The notes under the pieces were generated by a model. The model was not told where the DNA came from. It did no database searches and was given only the letters and a program-made list of their open reading frames with translations. Shown here piece after piece: positions 1 to 39,403 of a DNA stretch of 39,403 nt (position 1 is the first letter of the stretch; each line of letters starts with the position of its first letter). The stretch is from positions 1-39,403 of the IMG/VR virus record IMGVR_UViG_3300028840_003316, one strand, 5' to 3'. The translations under genes were made by a program, and so were the position numbers. This DNA is from a virus.

Positions 1-144
1 CAGGGAGATGTGATGTCAATGGGAGTTGCTAGCTCAAATTATGATGTGGGAAGTGATGCAATTCTTCCTAGAGAAGGTGGACTTTCACTGAGTTCAGGAC
101 AGATGATGGGGTTTCTGAACACTTATGACAAAGGTTTTAAGTGG
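1..144. repeat. Exact 144-bp duplicate of 39260-39403. This is the overlap of a circular (or terminally redundant or permuted) genome assembly.
   Basis: Base-by-base comparison of the first 144 nt with the last 144 nt shows identity. The reading frame is continuous across the junction. Confidence 0.95.
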
Positions 145-17679: not shown

Positions 17680-18330
17680 CTATGTATGTTGAGATGAATT
17701 TTGACATATTGGTGTAGTTAGTGCTCTTTCGGTGTCCCATCCTTCAAGTATTCTCTTCTTTAGAGCATCATAATTTAGATTTAATTCACGAGCCCATTCT
17801 GATAAAGTTTTTGTTTTACCTCTGAATGTTAGGTTTTTATTTTGCCTGGTATTATTTGCCTGTTCAAGCGGTGTGGACCATTTACAGTTATCTGGTGTGT
17901 AATTCCCATTGTTATTGATTCTATCAATAGATAGTCCATCACCATAATCATTATCAATTGCCCAATTTTTAAAGGCTTCATATTCATCCCACTCCTTGCA
18001 TACTTTTATACCCCTTCCACCGTATCTATGGAATGAAGGGTTATTTTTGTTATTACACCTGTTCCTCATTGCCTTCCAAATTCTGTATAGGCGTGGGTTA
18101 TTTTTGCTTTCACCGTGTGTTTTATTCCAACCACATATCTTGTTAGATTGTTCTTTGGATAGACAGCCACAACTCTTAGTTTTTTTTAATCGTAAATCCC
18201 TTCCTTTTACAATAGACCAATTCTCACAACTACACTTACATAACCAATATGCAAATTGATCTTTCTTGGCAATTTCTACGACCTTTAAACGTCCGTAGGT
18301 GTTTCCAGTCTCGTCGATAATTTTACCCAT
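17680..18330 (-). CDS. Protein of the YGGRGI family, commonly annotated as an HNH/AP2-like endonuclease or DNA-binding protein
   Basis: YGRLKVVE...WLCKCSCEN...SCGCL, RLYRIWKAMRNRCNN...YGGRGIKVCKEW and IDRINNNGNYTPDNCKW are the family signatures as I remember them. Confidence 0.65.
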   Translation of the reverse strand: MGKIIDETGNTYGRLKVVEIAKKDQFAYWLCKCSCENWSIVKGRDLRLKKTKSCGCLSKEQSNKICGWNKTHGESKNNPRLYRIWKAMRNRCNNKNNPSFHRYGGRGIKVCKEWDEYEAFKNWAIDNDYGDGLSIDRINNNGNYTPDNCKWSTPLEQANNTRQNKNLTFRGKTKTLSEWARELNLNYDALKKRILEGWDTERALTTPICQNSSQHT

Positions 18331-18350
18331 AAAACTGGATTAAATAATAA

Positions 18351-18425
18351 TACCCCATCAAGAGAGGTGATACACAGCTAGGTAAAGCTGGTTCATCCGA
18401 AGATGAAGCCTCCCTTGACGGGGTA
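18351..18425 (-). ncRNA. 75-nt Y-shaped structured element
   Basis: A 17-bp closing helix encloses two hairpins, one with a UUCG loop on the minus strand. The outer helix pairs 18351-18367 with 18409-18425; its two A-C mismatches on the + strand become U-G pairs on the - strand. The hairpins are 18375-18390 and 18392-18407, and the loop CGAA reads UUCG on the - strand. Confidence 0.5.
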
Positions 18426-18461
18426 TTTACCTATCTAGTATCAATAACAATCATATCACAT

Positions 18462-18704
18462 TTATTCGGTTTTGTCAACCCCTTTAGCCGTCTTTTTGGC
18501 TTTCTTTAGCGGTTCTTCTTGTTTTTCATCAATCATCTCCAGAGCCTCTTCTTTGGTTATTTCAGGTTCCTCTGGTGTCCACTTACCGTGTGGGTGCCAG
18601 GTACCATTGTTCATATTCCAATGGTATAGTTTGTTGTCTTCTCCAAGCCCAATGATTACTTTCTCGGACTTGGCGTAAATTTGGATAATCTTCATATTAC
18701 TCAT
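18462..18704 (-). CDS. Hypothetical protein (80 aa)
   Basis: An ORF with TATG context. The G..G.(L/I)Y.W...W pattern is shared with 19146..19328, so the two may be paralogues. Confidence 0.6.
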   Translation of the reverse strand: MSNMKIIQIYAKSEKVIIGLGEDNKLYHWNMNNGTWHPHGKWTPEEPEITKEEALEMIDEKQEEPLKKAKKTAKGVDKTE

Positions 18705-21469: not shown

Positions 21470-22126
21470 TTAGTAGATTGTTACGGTTCTTTCTTGTATG
21501 CCGAATTTAATTGCTTCATCGTATGCTTCTTGCCCATACCCCATAAACACATCAAATCGTCCGTCTAGGTATGTTGCGGTACGATCGCCACACTCATACA
21601 ACCCCATTCCAGCGATCTCGACTTTTGTACCAAATTCATATGCCGTAGGACAGGCAATGTATCCAATTTCGGCAGGTATGTTGTTTGCCATTTTACATCC
21701 TGGATAATGGCAGCTGTCGAATTCTGAATAAGCTGTAACAACAGCTTGATAGCTATCACCGATCCCCACACCAGGTTGAGACACAATATGACCCTGTGAC
21801 GTCGTGGGGACGTCACAATATACATTTTGTAGGGTGCAGGGATCAGGGATAGCCCCTGAAGTATCCGAAGCTTCGTTTCTTCCGACGCCAACGGTGTCCC
21901 CGATTAATGAGGCCGTGACCTTGTCAGTGTAAGCGTGAGTTTCAGACGGTGCTTCAGAAGCTGACTCTGTAGGCAATACAAAGAACATTATTGCCGCCAG
22001 AATCAGTAATATTGTAACAAAAATGGCTAATTCTCTCCAGGATTCTTTCTCCTCTGCGTCTATAATTGGGAACGTCTCCCAAAGACGGTCTTCTAGGTTT
22101 ATTTGTTTTTTGTTTTTCCTCCACAT
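21470..22126 (-). CDS. Membrane-anchored 3D-domain (MltA/YabE-type double-psi beta-barrel) putative cell-wall hydrolase
   Basis: An N-terminal TM segment (LAIFVTILLILAAIMFFVL) is present. The C-terminal VTAYSEF...GYIACP...FGTKVEI..MGLYECGDRT...GRFDVFMG...A..FG resembles the 3D domain pattern. Confidence 0.65.
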   Translation of the reverse strand: MWRKNKKQINLEDRLWETFPIIDAEEKESWRELAIFVTILLILAAIMFFVLPTESASEAPSETHAYTDKVTASLIGDTVGVGRNEASDTSGAIPDPCTLQNVYCDVPTTSQGHIVSQPGVGIGDSYQAVVTAYSEFDSCHYPGCKMANNIPAEIGYIACPTAYEFGTKVEIAGMGLYECGDRTATYLDGRFDVFMGYGQEAYDEAIKFGIQERTVTIY

Positions 22127-24678: not shown

Positions 24679-24707
24679 ATTGTATCTGCTATTGACTTCT
24701 TTGTCAA
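24679..24707 (-). promoter_or_regulatory. Leftward sigma70-type promoter (TTGACA - 17 nt - TACAAT)
   Basis: On the - strand the -35 TTGACA corresponds to + 24702-24707 and the -10 TACAAT to + 24679-24684. The spacer is 17 nt. Confidence 0.6.
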
Positions 24708-24720
24708 GTATAACTATACT
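24692..24720 (+). promoter_or_regulatory. Rightward sigma70-type promoter (TTGACT - 17 nt - TATACT)
   Basis: The -35 is at 24692-24697 and the -10 at 24715-24720. The two divergent -35 boxes form the palindrome TTGAC-n6-GTCAA (24692-24707). Confidence 0.55.
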
Positions 24721-24753
24721 GAAGGGGATGCTTGTGGAAAAGCGAGCCTTTAC

Positions 24754-24768
24754 AAAATGTGTTATAAT
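24754..24768 (+). promoter_or_regulatory. Extended -10 promoter (TGTTATAAT) within a 15-mer repeated at 25968-25982
   Basis: AAAATGTGTTATAAT is identical at both sites. TGnTATAAT is the extended -10 consensus. Confidence 0.55.
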
Positions 24769-24782
24769 GAGCGCGGGAAACA

Positions 24783-24880
24783 GGGGTAGGAGAACTCATT
24801 AAGATGTGGGTCTTCGATCGCAAGATCGACGGTCAGCCTCCTACCCGACCGCCCATAGGCCCCCATCTTAATGAGTTTTT
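24783..24880 (+). promoter_or_regulatory. Structured leader with mutually exclusive helices and a terminator-like stem plus U-run, immediately before the replication gene ATG
   Basis: Helix A pairs 24784-24792 with 24838-24846 (9 bp). Helix B pairs 24794-24810 with 24861-24876 (16 bp, one bulge) and is followed by UUUU at 24877-24880. An internal hairpin at 24814-24829 has a GCAA tetraloop. Confidence 0.55.
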
Positions 24881-24883
24881 ATT

Positions 24884-25651
24884 ATGCAAGGATACATCTA
24901 CCTACATCGTCAAATTACTGACAACGATATGTGGACTTCTGAAAAGTTCACCAGAGCTCAGGCTTGGGTAGACTTATTGTTACTTGCAACCCACAAGAAA
25001 ACAACGCTTTTCATTAGAGGGATTGAAGTCGCTCTAAAACCCGGAGAACTGTGTTGGGCACAGAAGAGTTTGGCCAAAAGATGGAAGTGGAGCGACAAAA
25101 AAGTTAAGGGGTACCTTGACCTGTTGCAGAGGGAGGGTCAAATCGATTATTCTACGACACAGAATATTGGCGTGGTTAAGATAAAAAACTGGGAAAGATA
25201 CCAGAGCACTACGACACAAAGTACGATACAAAGTACGATACAAAAGACGCACAAAGTACGACCTAACAATAATGTTAATAATGATAAGAATGTAAAGAAA
25301 GAATATATTGCAACTTCGTTGCAAGAGGAAGTTTCCAAAATGATTTCAGATAAACAAAAACATATTCAGATAATTGGACTCTACCTGAAAGCCAAATCTC
25401 CTGAGATTTCCAATAAGGCACAGATCCAGTCTTTCATCAAAAGAAACCTGCGAGCTGCTAAGGAGCTTGTGGGGTATGAAACGAAGAAAATAATTAAAGT
25501 CCTCGATTACTTGAGAAACTCCGCTGACTTTAAGTGGACTCTTGAGACGGTCGGGAAATACATTGACGAGGATCTCGATCAAGTCAATCAGAGTGAGGAG
25601 GACGCTAAAACAAAAAGGCAAGACGAGATTGCCAAAAACCTGTATGGATAA
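24884..25651 (+). CDS. Replication initiator / replisome-organiser-like protein (N-terminal winged-helix domain)
   Basis: W..E.F....AWVDLLLLA........IRGIEV.L.PGE......LAKRWKWS..KV..YL..L..EG.I matches a widespread phage and plasmid replication-protein N-domain pattern. The gene contains iterons. Confidence 0.6.
   Translation: MQGYIYLHRQITDNDMWTSEKFTRAQAWVDLLLLATHKKTTLFIRGIEVALKPGELCWAQKSLAKRWKWSDKKVKGYLDLLQREGQIDYSTTQNIGVVKIKNWERYQSTTTQSTIQSTIQKTHKVRPNNNVNNDKNVKKEYIATSLQEEVSKMISDKQKHIQIIGLYLKAKSPEISNKAQIQSFIKRNLRAAKELVGYETKKIIKVLDYLRNSADFKWTLETVGKYIDEDLDQVNQSEEDAKTKRQDEIAKNLYG
25211..25262 (+). repeat. About 4.5 tandem copies of a 12-bp unit ACGAYACAAAGT, followed by an AT-rich tract at 25263-25310; candidate origin iterons
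   Basis: The units read ACGACACAAAGT, ACGATACAAAGT, ACGATACAAAAG, ACGCACAAAGT, ACGAC. They encode TTQSTIQSTIQKTHKV in the linker after the winged-helix domain. Confidence 0.6.
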
Positions 25652-27370: not shown

Positions 27371-27589
27371 ATGTCAGATCAAACACCTACAATTCCTCTC
27401 CTCCAGAAGATTTGGTTTTGGTGGGGGGTTAATGTACTCAAAATGAAGTTCATTGTTCTTCACAACGATGGAATGAAGGTGGATGGCAGACCAGTAATTC
27501 ACGGAGTTACGTTCAGTTATCGTAAGGATTTTGCAGACCGACTAGTGCAGTGGTTGAGAGACCAAAAGAAGACTAATAACAAAACCTAA
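27371..27589 (+). CDS. Hypothetical protein (72 aa)
   Basis: An ORF with CTTATG context. Confidence 0.6.
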   Translation: MSDQTPTIPLLQKIWFWWGVNVLKMKFIVLHNDGMKVDGRPVIHGVTFSYRKDFADRLVQWLRDQKKTNNKT

Positions 27590-27688: not shown

Positions 27689-27928
27689 ATGAAAAAAACA
27701 CCTACCCTGCTAGAGCAGGCAAAAAAACTAAACGGCAATAAGAAAGGACAGATAATTCCAACTCAAGAGATTGCAGAATTATTGCACGCATATTATTTGG
27801 GTCAGGTGTCGCTAGCTTCTGTAGCAGAGGTATTAGATCTCGGCAGGCAGAATATGTACAGCAAACTCTCCTGTATCACTAAAGATTGTGTGAACTGGGG
27901 GTACTTAGAAATAAGACTGAAGAAATAA
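27689..27928 (+). CDS. Small helix-turn-helix DNA-binding protein
   Basis: SLASVAEVLDLGRQNMYSKL is an HTH-like segment. Confidence 0.5.
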   Translation: MKKTPTLLEQAKKLNGNKKGQIIPTQEIAELLHAYYLGQVSLASVAEVLDLGRQNMYSKLSCITKDCVNWGYLEIRLKK

Positions 27929-30750: not shown

Positions 30751-32037
30751 ATGTCCGACTGGATGCCAACCACAAAGCAGAAGGAAGCACTTGTGCGTTC
30801 AGAGTTCGAGATAATGTATGGTGGGGCTCGAGGTGGAGGAAAAACGGACTGCGGGATGGCGTGGTTACTCTACAACATAGACCATCCTGAGTTCAGAGCT
30901 CTCGTTATTCGACGTAACAGTACAGATTTAGATGACTGGATTGACCGTGCCAGAACTATGTACGCAAAGGTGGGAGGAAAGGCCACAGGCAATCCTCCTG
31001 AATTTGTGTTTCCAAGTGGTGCGATAATCCGTACAGGTCACTTAAAAGACGAGAGTGCATACGAGAAGTATCAAGGACACGAATACCATCGGATGCTAAT
31101 CGAGGAGCTTACACATATTCCTCGACAAGAGGACTATTTGAAACTTATCTCCAGTTGTCGTTCGACAGTGGAGGGATTGAAACCACAGATCTTTGCCACA
31201 ACCAACCCTGGTAACGCAGGGCACGAATGGGTGAAAGAAAGATTTGTCGACTGTAGTAGTCCAGGAGAGCCAACTGTGGATAAACAGACTGGGCGTAGCA
31301 GAATTTTCATCCCTGCCAAAGTAAACGACAATCCTCACCTAATGGAGAAAGATCCTGATTATGTTCGCTTCTTGGATGGTCTACCCGATGGTTTGCGACA
31401 AGCCTGGCGAGATGGTTCCTGGGATGACTTTGACATCGAAGGAGCCTATTATTCCGCTCAAATGAGGGAAGCTGAGCTTGATGGACGTATCGGTGAAGTA
31501 CCCTATGAAACATCCATCCCTGTGGATACCTGGTGGGATCTTGGTATAGGTGACTCGATGGTCATCTGGTTTTCACAGGTGGTGGGTAATGAGATCCGTT
31601 TGATTGACTATTACGAGAATAGTGGCGAGAGTTTGCAGTTTTATGGTAAAATATTACAAGAGCGAGGATATGTGTACGATACGCACTATATGCCTCACGA
31701 TGCTAAGGTACGGGAATTGTCCACAGGTAAGTCTCGTAAACAGATTGCAGAGTCTCTAGGAATACGCCCCATTAAGGTTGTTCCACAGCTTCCAGTAGAT
31801 GACGGGATTAACGCGGTGCGTATGATTTTGAATAAATGTTGGTTTGACCGTGAAAAATGTCAGGAGGGTATTAAGACCCTTAAAAACTACCGTAAGGAGT
31901 GGGATGACAAACACGGCACCTGGAAACCGAAACCCCTACACGACTGGGCTAGCCACGGAGCCGATGCTTTTAGGCAACTGGGAGTCCAAATCGACAAACG
32001 TCGAAGTGAGACTAAAGTGTTTAGACACGGTTATTAA
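30751..32037 (+). CDS. terL: Terminase large subunit
   Basis: A Walker A-like motif YGGARGGGKT, the ATPase segment MLIEELTH and a C-terminal nuclease-type region are present. The gene is followed by the portal gene. Confidence 0.85.
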   Translation: MSDWMPTTKQKEALVRSEFEIMYGGARGGGKTDCGMAWLLYNIDHPEFRALVIRRNSTDLDDWIDRARTMYAKVGGKATGNPPEFVFPSGAIIRTGHLKDESAYEKYQGHEYHRMLIEELTHIPRQEDYLKLISSCRSTVEGLKPQIFATTNPGNAGHEWVKERFVDCSSPGEPTVDKQTGRSRIFIPAKVNDNPHLMEKDPDYVRFLDGLPDGLRQAWRDGSWDDFDIEGAYYSAQMREAELDGRIGEVPYETSIPVDTWWDLGIGDSMVIWFSQVVGNEIRLIDYYENSGESLQFYGKILQERGYVYDTHYMPHDAKVRELSTGKSRKQIAESLGIRPIKVVPQLPVDDGINAVRMILNKCWFDREKCQEGIKTLKNYRKEWDDKHGTWKPKPLHDWASHGADAFRQLGVQIDKRRSETKVFRHGY

Positions 32038-32045
32038 ATATAAAT

Positions 32046-34025
32046 ATGCCAGTAGGGAGTAAAACTTCTTTAAGAGAAGAACGTTATCAAAAATATCCAA
32101 CGAATCAGGAGAGCTGGGTTCCAGAAGGAGATTCAGCAGAACTGATGTCGTTACTTTATGAACATTGGTGGGACGCCTATCAGTTGAGAACACGACCTTG
32201 GCACCACTTAGGAGACATTTCCGTAGAACAATTTTGGCAACGATCACGTGACCTATATAATGGTTACGTAGAGCCTTCAGATTCAGTAGAGGATGAATGG
32301 AAGTCCAAAGCATTTAAGAAGAAAACACGCCACAAGGTCATTGCGACTGTGGCTTCTTTTATTTCTTCTGGAATTGGAGTTGACTTCTCAGCTTTAGATC
32401 AACAGAACAATTTAGACCGAGATATTGCTCGAGTAGCTGATGATACCTACGAGTGGTCACTAGATCGAGAGGACTTTGACTTTAAATGGATTCGTACAAT
32501 CCTTTCAATGGTTGTTGAGGGTACCGCCTGTTTGTTTGAGGAAATCGCTTATGATGAGCGAAAGGTTAAGGATATTATCGATATTGATTTTGAAACAGGT
32601 AAGATTAAGTGGGAAGAAGCAGAAAAAGTTGACTACAAAGGCCCACGTTCAGAGCTAATTCGAATTGAGGAGATGTACCTAGGTGAGGCATTTGAACCAG
32701 ATATTCAGCGCCAGCCTTACATTTTCCGACGTAAAGTTACTACCTGGGAGCGGGCTGGAGAGTTTTTAGGTAAATACAAGAACTGGAAGTATGTGCGTCC
32801 TGGTAACGATAACTTCTTCCAGACTGATGGACAGAACATAGAACGTCGAGAACGTGAGAGTGATGATACAGACGAGAACAACGTAGAGATTCTTTGGTAC
32901 TGGAATAAGTCTAAGGAGCTTTATTCAATCGTTGCTAACGGGGTACTTCTCACTGATCCAGATGAACCATTTCCATACCCACACAAGCAGTATCCTTTTG
33001 CTTGGGACATTCACGAACCGTTTGCTGATGTTAACTTCTCTTGGGGTAATTCACTCCCAATGGTTAACGAGGACGATCAGGTTATTGTGAACTCATTATG
33101 GCGACTATTCATTGATTCCGCTAAGTTACGCAATAAACCACCGTTGTTTACATCCAACTTCGAGCTTGCTGGCACTGATTTGGTGGTACCTGGAACAGTG
33201 GCAACTAAAGAACCAGACGATGAGATTGAAATTATCCCAGGTCTTGTGCAAGGGCTTACACCAGGTGAGTTTAATGTGATGCAGATGGCAGAAAGGCAGA
33301 TGGACGAGAACTCAATCGATCCTTTACTTAGTGGTCAGACCCCACAAGGAGACCCTACAGCTACTGAGGTTAATGCTGTTGTTGGTTCAGCAGAGCGTCT
33401 ACGAGGATTTAGTGAGCAATTTGTAGGCTCATTACTCGTTCAGCACGCACATTTACGCTTGAAAAACGTATTCTGGTTCCTAACACACGACCCAGAATAT
33501 AAGAGAATTGTTAAAGATAGGGTTAAAACACGAGCCAATCAGACAGGTTATCGTCAGATTAACTTTGTTTCAGCTATTGAGATCCCGAACCCTGTGGATA
33601 TTATGCAGGAAGAGATTGATCTGGAAGAGAAAGAAGAACCAACCACCATTTTGTATGTGGATAAAGACCGTGTAGAGGACTATCGATACCACATTACGGT
33701 ATCTGCTACGCCTAAACCACGCCGAAATAGCACATCTAAGCTTCTCCGAGCTATTCAGAAGTACCAGTTCTACGCACAGAACCCACTTATTGATCAGATG
33801 GAGAACACTAAGACTATGGTCGAAGCGATGGGTGATGACCCACAACAGATGATGAAACAGCCAGAGATGCCAGAAATGGCACCTCCAGGACAACCAGCTG
33901 AGTTACCTCCAGGAGGTCCACCAGGACCAGGGGGTGCTCCAGGGGCACCTGCAACTGTAGGAGTTCCGCCAGGAGCAGCACAGATGGCTGGTAATATTGC
34001 AAGTGCAGAAGAACGAGCTGTATGA
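32046..34025 (+). CDS. Portal protein
   Basis: A 659-aa ORF directly after terL, with a Pro/Gly-rich C-terminal tail. The assignment rests on size, position and general character. Confidence 0.75.
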   Translation: MPVGSKTSLREERYQKYPTNQESWVPEGDSAELMSLLYEHWWDAYQLRTRPWHHLGDISVEQFWQRSRDLYNGYVEPSDSVEDEWKSKAFKKKTRHKVIATVASFISSGIGVDFSALDQQNNLDRDIARVADDTYEWSLDREDFDFKWIRTILSMVVEGTACLFEEIAYDERKVKDIIDIDFETGKIKWEEAEKVDYKGPRSELIRIEEMYLGEAFEPDIQRQPYIFRRKVTTWERAGEFLGKYKNWKYVRPGNDNFFQTDGQNIERRERESDDTDENNVEILWYWNKSKELYSIVANGVLLTDPDEPFPYPHKQYPFAWDIHEPFADVNFSWGNSLPMVNEDDQVIVNSLWRLFIDSAKLRNKPPLFTSNFELAGTDLVVPGTVATKEPDDEIEIIPGLVQGLTPGEFNVMQMAERQMDENSIDPLLSGQTPQGDPTATEVNAVVGSAERLRGFSEQFVGSLLVQHAHLRLKNVFWFLTHDPEYKRIVKDRVKTRANQTGYRQINFVSAIEIPNPVDIMQEEIDLEEKEEPTTILYVDKDRVEDYRYHITVSATPKPRRNSTSKLLRAIQKYQFYAQNPLIDQMENTKTMVEAMGDDPQQMMKQPEMPEMAPPGQPAELPPGGPPGPGGAPGAPATVGVPPGAAQMAGNIASAEERAV

Positions 34026-34360
34026 GAAAATGGCTAATGAAACACCTATCAAGTCGGTTCTATAAGGGAATTGTCCTTAATATTACTGATATTACTGAAT
34101 TGGGTGTTGAGGAACAAAAAGACTACCTTTCAAGGGCTTCAGATCTGGCAAGTGATCCAGTATTAGAAAATGAGATAAAGAAGATTATCCAGGCCTCGTC
34201 ACAGAAGATAATAAGGACCTGTAGTAATGACGTAGAGGTGGCGTGGCAACGAGGTGTGATTTACGGAATGGAAGAGTTTGTGAAAAACCTTCAAGGTATG
34301 AAACACAAGCATAAGGTTCTTGTGGAGAAGGAAGATAAAGCAAAAAAGAAGAAAAAGTGA
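34022..34360 (+). CDS. Hypothetical head-module protein (112 aa)
   Basis: It has an ATGA overlap with the portal stop and a Lys-rich C-terminus. Confidence 0.6.
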   Translation: MRKWLMKHLSSRFYKGIVLNITDITELGVEEQKDYLSRASDLASDPVLENEIKKIIQASSQKIIRTCSNDVEVAWQRGVIYGMEEFVKNLQGMKHKHKVLVEKEDKAKKKKK

Positions 34361-34366
34361 TATAAT
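34358..34366 (+). promoter_or_regulatory. Extended -10 promoter TGATATAAT in front of the structured RNA
   Basis: It matches TGnTATAAT and overlaps the upstream TGA stop. The predicted start at about 34372-34373 coincides with the first base of the closing helix. Confidence 0.5.
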
Positions 34367-34371
34367 ATAAG

Positions 34372-34746
34372 TGTTGGTTCTTTACCTCTCTATCTAGGAA
34401 ACAGGTAGGGTAAGCGGAATATGTGAAATAGGTGGTGGCTAACCGTCCTCAACCAACTTGATTGGCTTTAAGTAGGGCCACGCTGGAGGATTCGTGGGTT
34501 CAACTCCCACTCGCACCGTGTAACCCAGTGGCAATAATATGTCCTGTTTCTGAAGTAGAGTGTATATCGTACCTCTTCTACCTTCGGGTGGAGAGGGGAG
34601 CGGATTAGTAACAACAAGGCTGATAGAACTTGTCAGAAATGACTTGAGCCGTTATTAATTCGTTGCCTTCTCTCCCTGTATTAGGAGGGTGCCTCGTCGT
34701 GTCTCTTAACCTCACTTATGTGGGGTGGAGAGGTAAGGAACCAGCA
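34372..34746 (+). ncRNA. Large structured RNA of unknown class, about 375 nt
   Basis: The core is closed by a 19-20 bp helix pairing 34372-34390 with 34728-34746 (G-U pairs on the + strand only). A second helix pairs 34397-34405 with 34543-34551. Internal elements are a T-loop hairpin at 34494-34510, a C(UUCG)G hairpin at 34572-34598, a GAAA hairpin at 34632-34643, and hairpins at 34670-34689 and 34710-34725. No ORF is present. Confidence 0.65.
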
Positions 34747-34793
34747 TAAATACAATTAAACAAACACCTACACTCGCACTATCGGGGGTTGCG

Positions 34794-34820
34794 ACCGCCT
34801 CCTAAGTGTGGCGGTTTTTC
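34794..34820 (+). terminator. Intrinsic terminator (ACCGCC / GGCGGT stem plus UUUUU), nested in the outer helix 34762-34771 / 34821-34830
   Basis: The stem pairs 34794-34799 with 34810-34815 and the T-run is 34815-34819. Confidence 0.55.
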
Positions 34821-34852
34821 GTAGGTGTTTCAATCGCCAAACTTAGAAGGCA

Positions 34853-34886
34853 ATCGCACTCTCTGATAGGGGGTGCGATGTTTTTA
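34853..34886 (+). terminator. Intrinsic terminator (11-bp stem, 5-nt loop, UUUUU)
   Basis: AATCGCACTCTC-TGATA-GGGGGTGCGATG is followed by TTTTTATT at 34881-34888. Confidence 0.7.
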
Positions 34887-34940
34887 TTAACACCTAGCTG
34901 ACCCACGATGTGATGTCGTTAAACTCAACATACTGTCTGT

Positions 34941-35600
34941 ATGACGTTAAAAGACGAAAAGGAGATGGAAACTCCTGAAGAAACCCCTGAAGAGGTTACT
35001 AGTGAGGAACAACCTGAGGTTCTTGAAGATGAACCCAAGGAGGCGGAAGAAGTCGAAATTGACTATGCAGCCGAGCTTGCTCGGGAACGTCAAGAACGAG
35101 CACAGATATCTGGAGCTCTGAAAGACGAAAGGAAACGCCGTAAAGAAGCTGAAGCTAAACTCAAGGAGACTGACGAACCAGTTGCCCCTGGCAGCCCAGA
35201 GTCAATCGCCGCAGAGATTACTCAGCAAGTCGAGCGTCAACGTGCGGAAGACGATGTTTGGGAGGCCATTGAAGGTTTAACCGAAAATGAAGCCGAACAA
35301 GATTACATCTACTTCTGCTACCAAAATCGTATTAAGCCTACTGGATATAGCCGAAAGGCCATCCGGAACGATGTACGGGAAGCATATCTTCTCGCAAATC
35401 GCAAGAAGTATGAGGCTGATGCGGAAAAACGCGTTCGTAAATCTATGGCTGAAACCGAAGCTGTCAAACGATCTTCTGGAACTCCTAAGGGGAGCGTTCA
35501 AGAGAAACCAAAGGAAGATTGGTCTAAATACTCTGCTGAGGAGCGTGCACTTCTCGAAAGGCGAGGATTGAAACCAAAAGATGTTAAAAAAGAATTTTAA
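34941..35600 (+). CDS. Scaffolding protein (probable)
   Basis: A highly charged, Glu-rich, helical 219-aa protein between the portal and capsid genes. Confidence 0.6.
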   Translation: MTLKDEKEMETPEETPEEVTSEEQPEVLEDEPKEAEEVEIDYAAELARERQERAQISGALKDERKRRKEAEAKLKETDEPVAPGSPESIAAEITQQVERQRAEDDVWEAIEGLTENEAEQDYIYFCYQNRIKPTGYSRKAIRNDVREAYLLANRKKYEADAEKRVRKSMAETEAVKRSSGTPKGSVQEKPKEDWSKYSAEERALLERRGLKPKDVKKEF

Positions 35601-35609
35601 GAAACAATT

Positions 35610-36104
35610 ATGGCCAAAGGCGACGTTAAAATCAAAGACCCAATGGGTCGTCCGTTGCCTGTCTGGACTTGGCAGACTGAAGCTGCTGCTACCGACATTC
35701 TTGCCGGTGAGCCAGTTAAGCTAAAGGCTGCAGGCAGCCCATATGTTATCCCTCTCGCTACAGGTGAGCCAGTAATCGGGACAACTACCCAGATGATTGG
35801 TATCGCTGCTTCTGACTCTACCCACACTGCTTCTGCAGACGGTAACGTCGAAGTATACGTACCACTATCAGGTGTAGTTTACTCAGCTAAGGCTACTACC
35901 CCAGCGAACATCGATACTCAAGCAGAGCTCAACGCTTTGGTTGGTGATCGAGTTACTTTCGACCTTACTTCAAGTGTTTACACTGTTGATGAGGACGAAG
36001 GGGATGACGCACCACACGGGCTTCAGATTGTTGGTGGAAGTGCAGCTACGCTGGATCTCTACTTCGCAATCCGACCTGCATCTGTCGAGGGACCAATTGC
36101 CTAG
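35610..36104 (+). CDS. Head decoration / DUF2190-like capsid accessory protein (probable)
   Basis: A 164-aa beta-rich protein immediately upstream of the major capsid gene. AGEPVKL...IGIAA...V.V...GVV resembles the decoration-protein pattern. Confidence 0.5.
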   Translation: MAKGDVKIKDPMGRPLPVWTWQTEAAATDILAGEPVKLKAAGSPYVIPLATGEPVIGTTTQMIGIAASDSTHTASADGNVEVYVPLSGVVYSAKATTPANIDTQAELNALVGDRVTFDLTSSVYTVDEDEGDDAPHGLQIVGGSAATLDLYFAIRPASVEGPIA

Positions 36105-36134: not shown

Positions 36135-37067
36135 ATGAGTTTTAATAGTGCCCTGAACCCCAACGTGGTCAAGACCGCTCTTGACGATGTTTGGGATACA
36201 GAGTGGACTCAGGAGCAACACCCAGGTCACGCTACCGCTGAAACCAGCTACGTATTCCACCAGGATTCTGCTGATTCTAGCGCCGTGATTTTGGAGCTCT
36301 TTGGTGGTGTCGGTCAGTGGGAAGAAACGGCTGAGGAGCAAGACCTCCCAGACGGGACCCCACGGATCACAAACCAGAAAACATTTACGGTTGTTAAGTT
36401 TGCTAAGCACGTTGACATTCCTAAGGAATTCTTCGACGACAACAAGCACGGTTCTTACGAAAAGATGGTTAAGAACTTTGCACGTCGTGCACGAACTACT
36501 CGGGATTCAAATGCTTTCGGCATCTACCGTAACTCGTTTACTACCACTACCACTGCTGACGGTGCGGCGTTAATCTCTGACACCCACACAACCATCTCAG
36601 GTGACACTGTCGATAACAAGCTTACTGCTGCTTTGACAGAAGCTTCTCTTGAAGAGGCTTTCGTTAAGCTTTATGAGCAGAAGGCTCAAGACGGTGTGAT
36701 TGATGGTCACGTAGCTCGAGTACTTTTGGTACCTCCAACTCTTTTCAAAGATGCTTGTGAGATTACCAAGTCTGAGCTTCGATCAGGTACTGCTGACAAT
36801 GATCTTAACTACTACTCACAGATTTACCCAGGTTTGATGTGTTACACATCTTCATACCTTGGTGCTGCGGCTGGTGGTTCAGACACTGCTTGGTGGGTAC
36901 TTGGTGACAATCACTCAATTACCCGATGGATTCGTGAAGGTGTTAGCACAGATCTAGTGCCGTATGAATTCACCCGAAATGACGTATACCAGTACAAAGG
37001 CCGCTTCCGTGAAGTTTACGGAGCAATGACCTATGAAGGTATTGTCGGATCTGATGGATCAGCTTAG
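36135..37067 (+). CDS. Major capsid protein (HK97-fold type, probable)
   Basis: A 310-aa protein positioned after the scaffold and decoration genes. The FTVVKFAKHVDIPKEFFDD segment is typical of capsid families. Confidence 0.75.
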   Translation: MSFNSALNPNVVKTALDDVWDTEWTQEQHPGHATAETSYVFHQDSADSSAVILELFGGVGQWEETAEEQDLPDGTPRITNQKTFTVVKFAKHVDIPKEFFDDNKHGSYEKMVKNFARRARTTRDSNAFGIYRNSFTTTTTADGAALISDTHTTISGDTVDNKLTAALTEASLEEAFVKLYEQKAQDGVIDGHVARVLLVPPTLFKDACEITKSELRSGTADNDLNYYSQIYPGLMCYTSSYLGAAAGGSDTAWWVLGDNHSITRWIREGVSTDLVPYEFTRNDVYQYKGRFREVYGAMTYEGIVGSDGSA

Positions 37068-39055: not shown

Positions 39056-39403
39056 ATGTCAGTAGTTCTAACATCAGGCATTGACCTGAAATGGAGAATC
39101 AATCCTGATAATTCGGATGAGATTCAGGCCCTCAAGAATGTATGTATTCCAGACAAGTCCTTTGATCACATTGAGAGTATTGATGAAGCCTCACGATTCG
39201 TAGTTGAGAATGAACATAATGGAACCTCGGCTTCCGCTGGAGTCGAAACTATCAATGATCAGGGAGATGTGATGTCAATGGGAGTTGCTAGCTCAAATTA
39301 TGATGTGGGAAGTGATGCAATTCTTCCTAGAGAAGGTGGACTTTCACTGAGTTCAGGACAGATGATGGGGTTTCTGAACACTTATGACAAAGGTTTTAAG
39401 TGG
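39056..39403 (+). CDS. Tail fibre protein with a tail-collar-like domain, 5' part; continues at base 145 of the window after the duplicated 144 bp
   Basis: The ATG at 39056 has AATTATG context. The frame is open to the window end and in phase with 1..594. Confidence 0.7.
   Translation, partial: MSVVLTSGIDLKWRINPDNSDEIQALKNVCIPDKSFDHIESIDEASRFVVENEHNGTSASAGVETINDQGDVMSMGVASSNYDVGSDAILPREGGLSLSSGQMMGFLNTYDKGFKW
39260..39403. repeat. Exact duplicate of bases 1-144
   Basis: Direct comparison. Confidence 0.95.

Follow-up and report, generated by a model that had tools for sequence, protein, structure and literature searches.

The complete 39.3-kb genome of an uncultivated phage carries, between its portal-side genes and a scaffold-like gene (ATG at 34941), an element that matches no known RNA family and that occurs as a singleton in this one phage. 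As far as a single sequence allows, the element is supported as a folded RNA made from the + strand, because its predicted fold is strand-specific, its long helices contain G-U pairs and no A-C mismatches, it includes a T-arm, and its closing helix begins at the start predicted from a conserved -10 box. The reading that we favor, though tentatively, is that of a lineage-specific structured RNA housed in the conserved promoter-hairpin-terminator leader of the scaffold and capsid genes and acting in trans as a moron-like cargo. Positions below refer to the window, which is the whole 39,403-nt stretch of DNA that was analysed.

Non-coding status and predicted fold of the gap

The element lies in a 580-nt gap (34361-34940) that is, as initially annotated, the largest ORF-free stretch of the genome, here at a threshold of 50-60 aa. 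It contains 9-14 stops per frame in all six frames. All three types of stop codon occur in each frame, so the gap is non-coding under any stop-codon reassignment, and the coding signal under an alternative genetic code that had been raised as an objection is ruled out. The earlier statement that ORFs here do not exceed about 13 codons holds for ATG starts only, since TTG and GTG ORFs of 48-49 aa exist mechanically. No gene has been interrupted, as neither the 112-aa nor the 219-aa gene on either side is truncated relative to its homologues.

Table 1. Features in and around the gap, with pair probabilities (p) and z values where available
Feature	Position	Strand	Remarks
Extended -10 promoter-like box TGATATAAT	34358-34366	+	Overlaps TGA stop of the 112-aa ORF; sequence read
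Closing helix P1, 5′ strand	34371-34391	+	MFE fold; p 0.76-1.0; 4 G-U
Closing helix P1, 3′ strand	34727-34747	+	MFE fold; p 0.76-1.0
Domain A	34397-34551	+	Long stem of 9+4+4+5 bp bearing a three-way junction drawn as a tRNA-like cloverleaf (MFE)
Outer 9-bp helix of domain A	34397-34405 / 34543-34551	+	p 0.74-1.0
Acceptor-like helix of domain A	34422-34426 / 34511-34515	+	5 bp; p 0.9-0.99
D-like hairpin of domain A	34431-34444	+	p only 0.29
Long "anticodon" arm of domain A	34445-34491	+	p about 0.5
T-arm GTGGG-TTCAACT-CCCAC	34494-34510	+	p 0.99
Domain B	34553-34707	+	Long hairpin; core 34585-34678 of 26 bp (4+8+14), two mismatches, 6 G-U
Apical arm of domain B	34618-34650	+	Bears GAAA-capped hairpin 34632-34643, p about 0.9
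Hairpin C, ACCUCAC-UUAU-GUGGGGU	34709-34726	+	Adjoins closing helix and completes four-way junction; p 0.77-1.0
Sense copy of repeated 10-mer AAACACCTAC	34762-34771	+	
Long inverted-repeat hairpin	34771-34876	+	About 105 nt; z -5.5 on +, -6.6 on -
Intrinsic terminator	34853-34886	+	12-bp stem, 3-nt loop, then GTTTTTATT; called by scan as 34853-34879 plus T-run
Two copies of (A/G)TG(T/A)CGTTAAA	34912-34951	+	28-nt spacing; second copy overlaps scaffold-like ATG at 34941

In the MFE fold, the 377-nt core (34371-34747) forms a compact four-way junction composed of the closing helix (P1), domain A, domain B and hairpin C (Table 1). These domains are local and separate, being joined by linkers of 0-5 nt, and do not make up one long palindrome. 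P1 had been described as a helix of 19-20 bp and spans 21 bp in the predicted structure. Its three G-U pairs, claimed for a 19-bp range, become four over the 21 bp, two of which fall within that range. Across the three long helices (21, 14 and 8 bp), there are nine G-U pairs on the + strand and zero A-C mismatches.

The 383-nt stretch that contains the core (34368-34750) has an MFE of -153.5 kcal/mol and, in keeping with the initial proposal, is more stable than dinucleotide-shuffled controls, with a z of -6.5 on the + strand (100 shuffles) and of -2.4 on the - strand. It is the strongest outlier among 414 genome-wide windows (mean -0.7, sd 1.5), the core window having been set in register with the element. 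When the closing helix is left out, the inner part gives -3.6 on the + strand and -0.2 on the - strand. This asymmetry, together with the G-U pairs and the absence of A-C mismatches, supports the earlier view of strand-specific pairing at the RNA level.

The source of the energy signal is the closing helix and the 26-bp hairpin of domain B, and not domain A. The domain B core reaches z values of -7.1 on the + strand and -1.6 on the - strand, with pair probabilities of 0.9-1.0. Domain A has a z of -1.05 on both strands, and 28 of 200 shuffles fold equally well. The earlier description of the RNA as ornate is thus overstated, since domain A, half of the molecule, is thermodynamically indistinguishable from shuffles.

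Domain A does contain a T-arm, which is canonical, as had been recognized from the sequence: the stem has 5 bp, and G53, U54, U55, C56, A57, A58 and C61 are all present. Across both strands of the genome there is one T-arm-type hairpin, against 0.22 expected. The outer helix of this domain likewise lies where it had been placed. Elsewhere the cloverleaf departs from tRNA, as an insert of 35 nt that lacks U33 stands in for the anticodon loop, and the equivalent of position 70 is an A paired with U, not the G3-U70 pair.

Several smaller hairpins had also been proposed. The GAAA-capped hairpin and the domain B arm that bears it are present, and the hairpin given as 34710-34725 appears as hairpin C. 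By contrast, the hairpin capped by C(UUCG)G (34572-34598) and the one at 34670-34689 have close to zero equilibrium probability and belong to an alternative fold that lies 9.4 kcal/mol above the MFE. The repeated segment GGTGGAGAGG does occur twice, at 34587 and 34724.

Leader context and relatives

The promoter-like box TGATATAAT was correctly identified in the initial annotation. It ends 4 nt ahead of the closing helix, and the start predicted from it (34371-34373) coincides with the beginning of that helix. Of 12 family members, 7 have the corresponding motif, TGNTAYAAT, in the interval from portal to scaffold gene (the window, L001, L005, L008, L040, L052 and L053), and in four of these seven it is situated at the 3′ end of the small ORF. 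The motif shows no enrichment in the present genome taken alone (5 observed versus 3.7 expected). A promoter of the Bacteroidota type was rejected because TANNTTTG is not enriched and a textbook sigma-70 promoter is present elsewhere in the phage (TTGACT-17-TATACT at 24693). The early gene that starts at 24884 has the same layout as the gap, namely promoter, long hairpin, T-run and ATG.

Downstream of the core, two related hairpins with terminators had been reported. These are the two arms of a single inverted repeat of about 105 nt that is equally stable on both strands, and the terminator scan called one good intrinsic terminator here. A transcript starting at the promoter probably ends at this terminator (34853-34886), which would make it about 515 nt long. 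The upstream candidate at 34795-34819 has a stem of 5-6 bp and a 10-nt loop, and it was not called by the terminator scan; this weaker hairpin and its T5 could nevertheless provide an alternative end, yielding a product of about 450 nt.

In about 14 distinct relatives that share the gene order, this site measures 0-330 nt, compared with 580 nt in the window. Their intervals contain hairpins and T-runs, and terminator-type hairpins stand between promoter and gene in all of them. The gap is best explained as a leader to the genes for scaffold and capsid, following a family layout of host-type extended -10, long hairpin and T-run.

This setting brings up a somewhat unlikely alternative, in which the element works in cis as part of the 5′ leader, either controlling terminator read-through as an antiterminator or attenuator, or governing mRNA processing and stability through RNase III. 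Both kinds of device occur in phages: the put RNA of HK022 is an RNA-mediated antiterminator, and T7 has intergenic RNase III sites. The family conserves the -10 box immediately ahead of the genes for scaffold and capsid, there is no other obvious promoter before the ATG, and read-through control of some form is needed because terminator-type hairpins precede the gene in all relatives. A cis role is also consistent with the alternative pairings (the UUCG fold being only 9.4 kcal/mol above the MFE), with the two helices of at least 21 bp, and with the recurrence of the layout at the early gene. However, relatives run the same operon without the 375-nt module, which is thus not required for basic leader function. 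Moreover, known antiterminator RNAs are about 70 nt long, nothing accounts for the involvement of a T-arm and of a four-way junction, and no Rfam riboswitch or leader family matches the element.

Relatives were sought through the proteins of the phage. For the portal protein there are 52 homologues, of which the closest match is 59% identical; for the scaffold-like protein the search retrieved nothing but the protein itself. Look-ups returned no exact-protein record for the window's own proteins, and a portal-profile scan of GTDB genomes gave no prophage relative. For the RNA, BLASTN searches found no homologue in INPHARED phages or PLSDB plasmids, and exact and degenerate pattern scans of IMG/VR were equally negative. 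The gapped closing-helix pattern gave five matches, all of them divergent ribosome-binding-site sequences that match by chance, and the UUCG-hairpin pattern gave one, within a coding region. A T-arm pattern with free stem positions had no match in JGI metagenomes and GTDB genomes, from which the window itself is evidently absent. Finally, no RNA homologue was detected by blastn and nhmmer against all fetched loci, nor by a covariance model of domain A run on 243 kb of sequence from 27 related loci. A lack of conservation among related phages had been listed as counting against the initial proposal; in the event, the element is absent from every relative found, and is not a case of one that is present but unconserved.

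One relative, L053, carries a different insert of 565 nt at the same site, which indicates that the site tolerates cargo. In L053 a hairpin, CCCUCUCUUC-UUCG-GAAGAGAGG, occupies the place of the window's closing-helix arms, UACCUCUCU ... AGAGAGGUA. The sequence of the window's own alternative UUCG hairpin also turns up in this relative, matching at 19 of 21 positions; four changes are one-sided and preserve the pairing. The module may have originated by loop expansion of an ancestral promoter-proximal CUCUCU/AGAGAG hairpin.

The same observations could be accommodated by an insertion that is neutral or selfish and has no RNA function, such as the remnant of a MITE or other small mobile element, or recombination debris in which, for example, a tRNA 3′ fragment and inverted repeats give a low folding energy. 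We regard this as unlikely. The ends of the core do form terminal inverted repeats that match at 18 of 21 positions, with ATAA on both flanks (34367-34370 and 34746-34749). The element is confined to one genome, with no homologues in the collections searched and no counterpart in any relative, unrelated extra DNA occupies the site in L053, and domain A is no stabler than chance. Against this, the mismatches of the inverted repeats are all G-U compatible on one strand, the departures in the long helices are all G-U on the + strand, and the z of the - strand is about 0 without the closing helix, an asymmetry that argues for selection on the + RNA. The domains are separate and local, the helix begins exactly at the predicted +1, no second copy of the element exists in the genome, and a flanking repeat of 4 nt counts for little where the sequence is AT-rich.

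Comparison with known RNAs

A cmscan of the whole window against Rfam (4227 families) gave no match at the gathering score. At E<=10, the matches listed for 34250-35000 and two sub-domains comprise only an 18-nt tmRNA T-arm fragment and junk, the latter being miRNA-type families that align to the long hairpins and tRNA-remnant plastid UTR families that align to the T-arm on its - strand. ARAGORN, with permuted tmRNA included, reported no tRNA or tmRNA gene. The Rfam and ARAGORN checks that had been suggested thus returned neither a family match nor a tRNA or tmRNA gene, and of the candidates put forward at the time, ROOL (RF03087), GOLLD (RF01998) and phi29 pRNA have no match at the gathering score and none listed at E<=10.

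Individual classes could be set aside on further grounds. For tRNA, RF00005 is missing at E<=10, the acceptor-like helix has only 5 bp, and there is no 7-nt anticodon loop. For tmRNA, standard or permuted, the model matches the T-arm only (model positions 346-363; 13.1 bits versus a gathering score of 47), and the G3-U70 pair is lacking. Unlike pRNA phages, this one encodes a large terminase of conventional type (Terminase_6N, phrog_979/phrog_2). No Intron_gpI, Intron_gpII or D1-D4 match is present at E<=10, and the flanking ORFs are intact, contrary to what a group I or group II intron would entail. Ribozyme families have no match at the gathering score and none among the matches listed at E<=10. 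The 38 ORFs scanned against Pfam include no reverse transcriptase, as a retron or DRT ncRNA would call for, and no TROVE domain. Y RNA and YrlA likewise have no Rfam match, and the order of arms is not permuted.

That the element is nonetheless a diverged member of ROOL, GOLLD, phi29-type pRNA, tmRNA or tRNA, group I or II introns or retron ncRNA is extremely improbable. This idea draws on its size, phage context and position near the portal gene, on the T-arm match to the tmRNA model, and on its termini, GUGUU at the start and AU at the end. It has already been largely refuted by the database results above, by intact flanking genes with nothing spliced, and by the absence of a reverse transcriptase and the presence of a conventional terminase.

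Several known systems are nevertheless instructive. To our knowledge, the list of large structured RNAs carried by phages is very short, and their roles are still unknown. With ROOL and GOLLD the present element shares its large size, extensive structure, non-coding nature, carriage by a phage and a function yet to be assigned. It differs in having a core of about 375 nt, versus about 580 and 800 nt, in failing to match their models, and in being a singleton of which half is not demonstrably structured. The lambda PR′-6S RNA-tR′ unit provides another parallel, as it combines a host-type promoter with an intrinsic terminator within a few hundred nucleotides ahead of structural genes, and its default product is a short non-coding transcript. 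Here, however, the unit sits within the structural module and follows the genes for terminase and portal, the predicted transcript greatly exceeds 6S RNA in both size and degree of structure, and no Q-like antiterminator or qut site was identified.

Similar comparisons can be drawn with tRNA-like modules, which include the tRNA-like domain of tmRNA, YrlA Y RNAs and viral tRNA-like structures (TLS). As in these, an acceptor-like helix carries a stacked T-arm, an elbow could draw on a loop that contains GG, and a longer arm replaces the anticodon arm. Here the acceptor-like helix runs into a long stem, leaving no free CCA end. Unlike YrlA, domain A has the normal tRNA arm order, and the phage has no Ro gene; unlike tmRNA, the element has no G3-U70 pair and no tag reading frame. 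The tRNA, tmRNA and TLS models all score below threshold.

The 21-bp closing helix, which pairs the segments on either side of a structured RNA, resembles the RNase III stems of 16S and 23S precursors in rRNA operons. The T7 RNase III sites share the intergenic setting in a podovirus-type phage; each of them consists of one hairpin, about 60 nt long and interrupted by an internal loop, and does not enclose a 335-nt domain, and cleavage in the present RNA is a prediction only. Lastly, as in phage morons, extra DNA lies between a promoter and a terminator in one phage and is absent from relatives with the same gene order. The cargo differs from that of morons in being non-coding, and relatives that lack it have both promoter and terminator, which therefore did not arrive with it.

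Possible functions

Under the tentatively preferred reading of a lineage-specific RNA cargo, a module of 375-377 nt (34371-34747) would have become lodged between promoter and terminator hairpin in this phage alone. Transcription would start at about 34371-34373, on the first bases of the 21-bp helix that later closes the module, and the RNA would fold into a four-way junction of closing helix, domain A with its T-arm, GAAA-tipped domain B and hairpin C. Most transcripts would end at 34886, and some perhaps near 34820, giving an abundant promoter-proximal RNA of about 450-515 nt. RNase III would probably trim this to a stable RNA of about 335-375 nt, since the 21-bp closing helix and the 26-bp hairpin of domain B (two mismatches) are long enough to be substrates. 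The trimmed RNA might then act in trans as an accessory, moron-like cargo. As a best guess, its target would be a host factor that recognizes the tRNA elbow and that is bound or decoyed by the RNA.

Several observations weigh against this account. It is built on a single sequence, and a high z can come from inverted repeats without RNA function. Domain A, the carrier of the tRNA-mimic idea, is no stabler than shuffles, and the Rfam tRNA model does not match it. No recognizable RNA-binding or processing partner (Ro, RT, RtcB or CCA-adding enzyme) is encoded among the 38 ORFs scanned, and the -10 box is not enriched in the genome. Transcription of the genes for scaffold and capsid presumably depends on this promoter as well, and a cis-acting leader fits this at least as naturally.

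Should the RNA be functional, it would represent a new and unrelated entry among large phage-borne structured RNAs, and would illustrate how the terminated leader of a late operon can act as a landing pad for RNA cargo. Should it not be, it would serve as a caution that a striking single-sequence fold and a T-loop can arise in a lineage-specific insert. Its value is limited for now, because proof by covariation needs homologues, of which the collections searched contain none; the case is directly testable, since exact positions are predicted for both transcript ends and for the helices.

The apical loop of the 3′ hairpin (34818-34831) displays GUAGGUGUUU (34821-34830), the genome's only antisense copy of a repeated 10-mer. 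The complementarity of GTAGGTGTT(T) at 34821 to 34762-34771, noted in the initial annotation, was reproduced here. Most positions of the loop are unpaired with probabilities of 0.75-1.0, those of 34820 and 34827 being lower (0.36 and 0.44). The 10-mer has five exact copies in the genome, against about 0.08 expected, and 11 copies with one mismatch, against 2.7 expected, a count reached in 0 of 100 shuffles. The three exact copies outside the gap are in mRNA sense, 7-26 nt past ORF starts and in differing reading frames, and two one-mismatch copies are likewise in mRNA sense shortly past ORF starts.

Conceivably, the loop could pair with AAACACCUAC sites 6-26 nt past the start codons of several phage mRNAs and block their translation, the 375-nt core serving as a stabilizing or protein-binding 5′ domain. 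The candidate targets would be ORFs 27371, 27689 and 17680-18330, with AAACACCTAC sites at 27381, 27696 and 18295. Such a trans-acting antisense regulator is very unlikely. It would make sense of the over-representation of the 10-mer, of the position and orientation of its copies, and of the placement of the sole antisense copy in a predicted unpaired loop. The motif was found post hoc, however, and two other 10-mers also reach five copies in the genome; the pairing would amount to merely 10-14 bp; a DNA-binding protein or translational repressor that recognizes the motif would account for the pattern just as well; the stability of the 3′ hairpin does not differ between strands; and the 375-nt core is left unexplained. 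Target prediction by RNAduplex with the full transcript gave only meaningless long-loop duplexes.

A bolder version of the cargo reading, which we consider quite doubtful, would make the element the first of a new class of large phage ncRNA. Its core of about 375 nt would be excised at the 21-bp helix from a terminated late leader, the tRNA-type elbow would decoy a tRNA-directed host factor (a defence nuclease or processing enzyme), and the GUAGGUGUUU loop would act as a seed that silences phage genes with AAACACCUAC in their first ten codons.

Close to the scaffold-like start codon, the paired arrangement of (A/G)TG(T/A)CGTTAAA (Table 1) is also seen in L001 and L004.

Coding status of the gap and search for known RNA families

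An exact direct repeat of 144 nt at the two ends of the window (1-144 = 39260-39403) identifies the contig as a complete phage genome of ~39.26 kb (~39,259 bp), circular or terminally redundant. The longest ORF-free stretch in this genome (threshold 50-60 aa) is the gap that follows a conserved small ORF downstream of the portal gene (Table). The initial annotation was largely right in what it observed here, and reading of the sequence recovered every motif it listed. The gap does not encode protein: 9-14 stops interrupt every one of the six frames, with all three stop codons represented in each, so that no reassigned code yields an ORF.

Across the whole window, no Rfam family reaches its gathering score, and matches at E<=10 are noise apart from an 18-nt match between the T-arm within the gap and positions 346-363 of the tmRNA model (13.1 bits, where the gathering score is 47). 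ARAGORN likewise reports no tRNA or tmRNA gene. ROOL, GOLLD, pRNA, RNase P RNA and 6S RNA are therefore not supported, nor are riboswitches, ribozymes and group I/II introns, and the families suggested earlier for this RNA proved either wrong or untestable. Both flanking ORFs are full length relative to their homologues, so nothing is spliced out, and Pfam scans of 38 ORFs revealed no reverse transcriptase, Ro, integrase or RNA-processing enzyme.

Features of the phage genome and portal-scaffold gaps of its relatives
Feature	Position (strand)	Remark
Large terminase gene	30751-32037 (+)	
SU10-type portal gene	32046-34025 (+)	
Conserved ORF	34022-34360 (+)	112 aa
Gap	34361-34940	between 112-aa ORF and scaffold-like gene
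Scaffold-like gene	34941-35600 (+)	acidic, 219 aa
164-aa gene	(+)	between scaffold-like and major capsid genes
Major capsid gene	36135-37067 (+)	
Domain A ("tRNA-like")	34397-34551	z -1.05 on +, -1.03 on -
Cloverleaf core of domain A		z 0.0 on +, about -0.1 on -
Domain B core	34585-34678	z -7.1 on +, -1.6 on -
Inner part without closing helix		z -3.6 on +, -0.2 on -
AAACACCTAC, exact copies	18295-18304(-), 27381-27390(+), 27696-27705(+), 34762-34771(+), 34821-34830(-)	
AAACACCTAC, one-mismatch copies	34040(+), 21453(-), 833(+)	
Gap in L049		0 nt
Gap in L051		133 nt
Gap in L008		161 nt
Gap in L052		171 nt
Gap in L005		175 nt
Gap in L001		183 nt
Gap in L050		192 nt
Gap in L004		327 nt
Gap in L053	6129-6692	565 nt

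Predicted fold of the core

The segment 34368-34750 (383 nt), which holds the 377-nt core of the gap (34371-34747), has a folding energy of -153.5 kcal/mol on the + strand (z -6.5, 100 dinucleotide shuffles) and z -2.4 on the - strand. In a genome scan whose core window was set to coincide with the element, the core stretch is the strongest outlier among 414 windows on both strands (genome mean z -0.7, sd 1.5). Pair probabilities are ~1 for the 21-bp helix that closes the core, for the 9-bp helix, T-arm and acceptor-like helix of domain A, and for the 8- and 14-bp helices of domain B and the adjacent hairpin C. Taken part by part, the z-scores show that the energetic evidence resides in the closing helix, with 21 bp, and in a hairpin of 26 bp, both of them long helices. 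The 21-, 14- and 8-bp helices together contain nine G-U pairs on the + strand and zero A-C pairs, every departure from Watson-Crick pairing being G-U on that strand; this asymmetry, the best single-sequence argument available, would point to selection on a + strand RNA rather than on a DNA palindrome. The RNA-level reading proposed earlier is plausible, its sole basis being one sequence.

Domain A draws its support from sequence only: it contains the genome's one hairpin that combines a UUCRANN loop with a G-C-closed stem of 5 bp, a type expected ~0.22 times per genome (both strands) and ~0.002 times in the gap on the + strand. Of the hairpins in the initial annotation, the one capped by UUCG and the one at 34670-89 lie outside the equilibrium ensemble and belong to an alternative fold that is 9.4 kcal/mol less stable. 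The two related downstream hairpins of that annotation are not separate but form the two arms of one ~105-nt inverted repeat, equally stable on + and - strands, whose 3′ arm makes up the sole terminator called by the scan (34853-79). Other 380-nt windows reach z -5 to -6.4 in noisy estimates from 16 shuffles each (21661-22040(-), 35721-36100(+) and 18241-18620 on both strands); part of them fall within coding sequence, and one spans the 18331-18461 gap.

The portal-scaffold interval in related phages

Portal homologues (n=52, 21-59% identity) are all metagenomic, and in the ~14 distinct relatives retrieved the region is arranged in the same way (portal, small ORF, gap, scaffold, capsid). No similarity to the 375-nt core was detected in these relatives by blastn, nhmmer or a covariance model of domain A, and no homologue in INPHARED phages, PLSDB plasmids, IMG/VR (pattern scans), or JGI metagenomes and GTDB genomes (T-arm pattern scan). 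The scaffold protein matches only itself, and no prophage relative was found among 185,579 GTDB species genomes; the phage is effectively a singleton.

Of 12 family members, 7 carry the extended -10 motif TGNTAYAAT in the portal-scaffold interval, four of these having it at the small ORF's 3′ end; since chance would give ~0.015 per interval, this promoter is probably real and conserved. Within the window genome, neither TGNTAYAAT nor TANNTTTG is enriched. A textbook sigma-70 promoter in the early region (TTGACT-17-TATACT, 24693-24721) makes a host-type -10 box meaningful in this phage; Shine-Dalgarno sequences are absent from all 34 gene starts examined, where upstream regions are A/T-rich, yet the promoters are of sigma-70-like type.

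When read and folded, the gaps of four relatives (L001, L004, L005 and L008) contain long hairpins with terminal T-runs. The conserved family leader of the scaffold and capsid genes is a host-type promoter, a long hairpin/terminator, ~60 nt with two CGTTAAA repeats, and the ATG, similar in form to the lambda PR′-6S-tR′ unit. Given such a leader, a cis role of the gap RNA in read-through or mRNA processing is conceivable, if somewhat unlikely. In the window, the CGTTAAA-containing motifs lie 28 nt apart (34912-34951), the second overlapping the scaffold-like start codon; similar pairs precede the scaffold gene in L001 (6390-6435) and L004 (4740-4775), amid different surrounding sequence. The pair may be a late promoter or translational operator. 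The order seen in the gap (promoter, long hairpin, T-run, gene) also appears at 24690-24883, where a second -10-type box (TGtTATAAT, 24760) lies beyond the sigma-70 promoter and a 21-nt inverted repeat (24793-813 / 24857-877, 90% complementary) is followed by TTTTTATT directly before ATG 24884; the 380-nt window from 24701 has z -5.3.

L053, the second-closest relative, has different gap content: its structure is only moderate, and UUCG-capped CUCU/GAGA hairpins flank two ATG-start ORFs, one encoding a very basic product of 39 aa and the other a product of 68 aa. Because this different insert occupies the same site, the portal-scaffold gap appears to be a hot spot at which phages of this family carry accessory cargo. 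Two short hairpin motifs are common to both phages, in the same order. CTCTTC-AC-TTTCGGGTGGAG of L053 agrees with the window's UUCG hairpin at 19/21 positions, the hairpin being preserved through four one-sided changes, and TCTTTCCCTCTCTTCTTCGGAAGAGAGGTAGGG aligns to the closing helix along its 5′ arm, which suggests that this helix derives from a small CUCUCU/AGAGAG hairpin near the promoter, later enlarged by expansion or invasion of its loop.

Possible accessory cargo and alternative readings

The gap RNA is a credible orphan candidate, short of being established as the large ornate RNA first envisaged. The preferred reading, a tentative one, is that the 375-nt structured module, present in this phage alone between promoter and terminator hairpin, may be accessory, moron-like RNA cargo selected at the RNA level. 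Its closing helix begins at the predicted +1. By default the transcript would measure 450-515 nt; the RNA is probably trimmed at two RNase III-sized helices and perhaps acts via a tRNA-type elbow. A neutral insertion, which the G-U asymmetry would not favor, is unlikely. The core (34371-34745) is flanked on both sides by ATAA (34367-34370, 34746-34749), adjoining terminal inverted repeats that match at 18/21 positions; these flanks resemble a target-site duplication, weak evidence since the sequence is AT-rich.

Antisense action through the loop of the 3′ hairpin is quite improbable as the function, and bears on a repeated 10-mer, AAACACCTAC. Five exact copies occur against ~0.08 expected, two further 10-mers also reaching five, and the count rises to 11 when one mismatch is tolerated, against 2.7 in shuffles. 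The pattern could reflect either a protein operator or an antisense seed and the sites it targets: the sole antisense copy lies in the apical loop of the transcript's 3′ hairpin, and the three exact copies beyond the gap, like two of those with one mismatch, are found in the mRNA sense 6-26 nt past ORF starts, in different reading frames.
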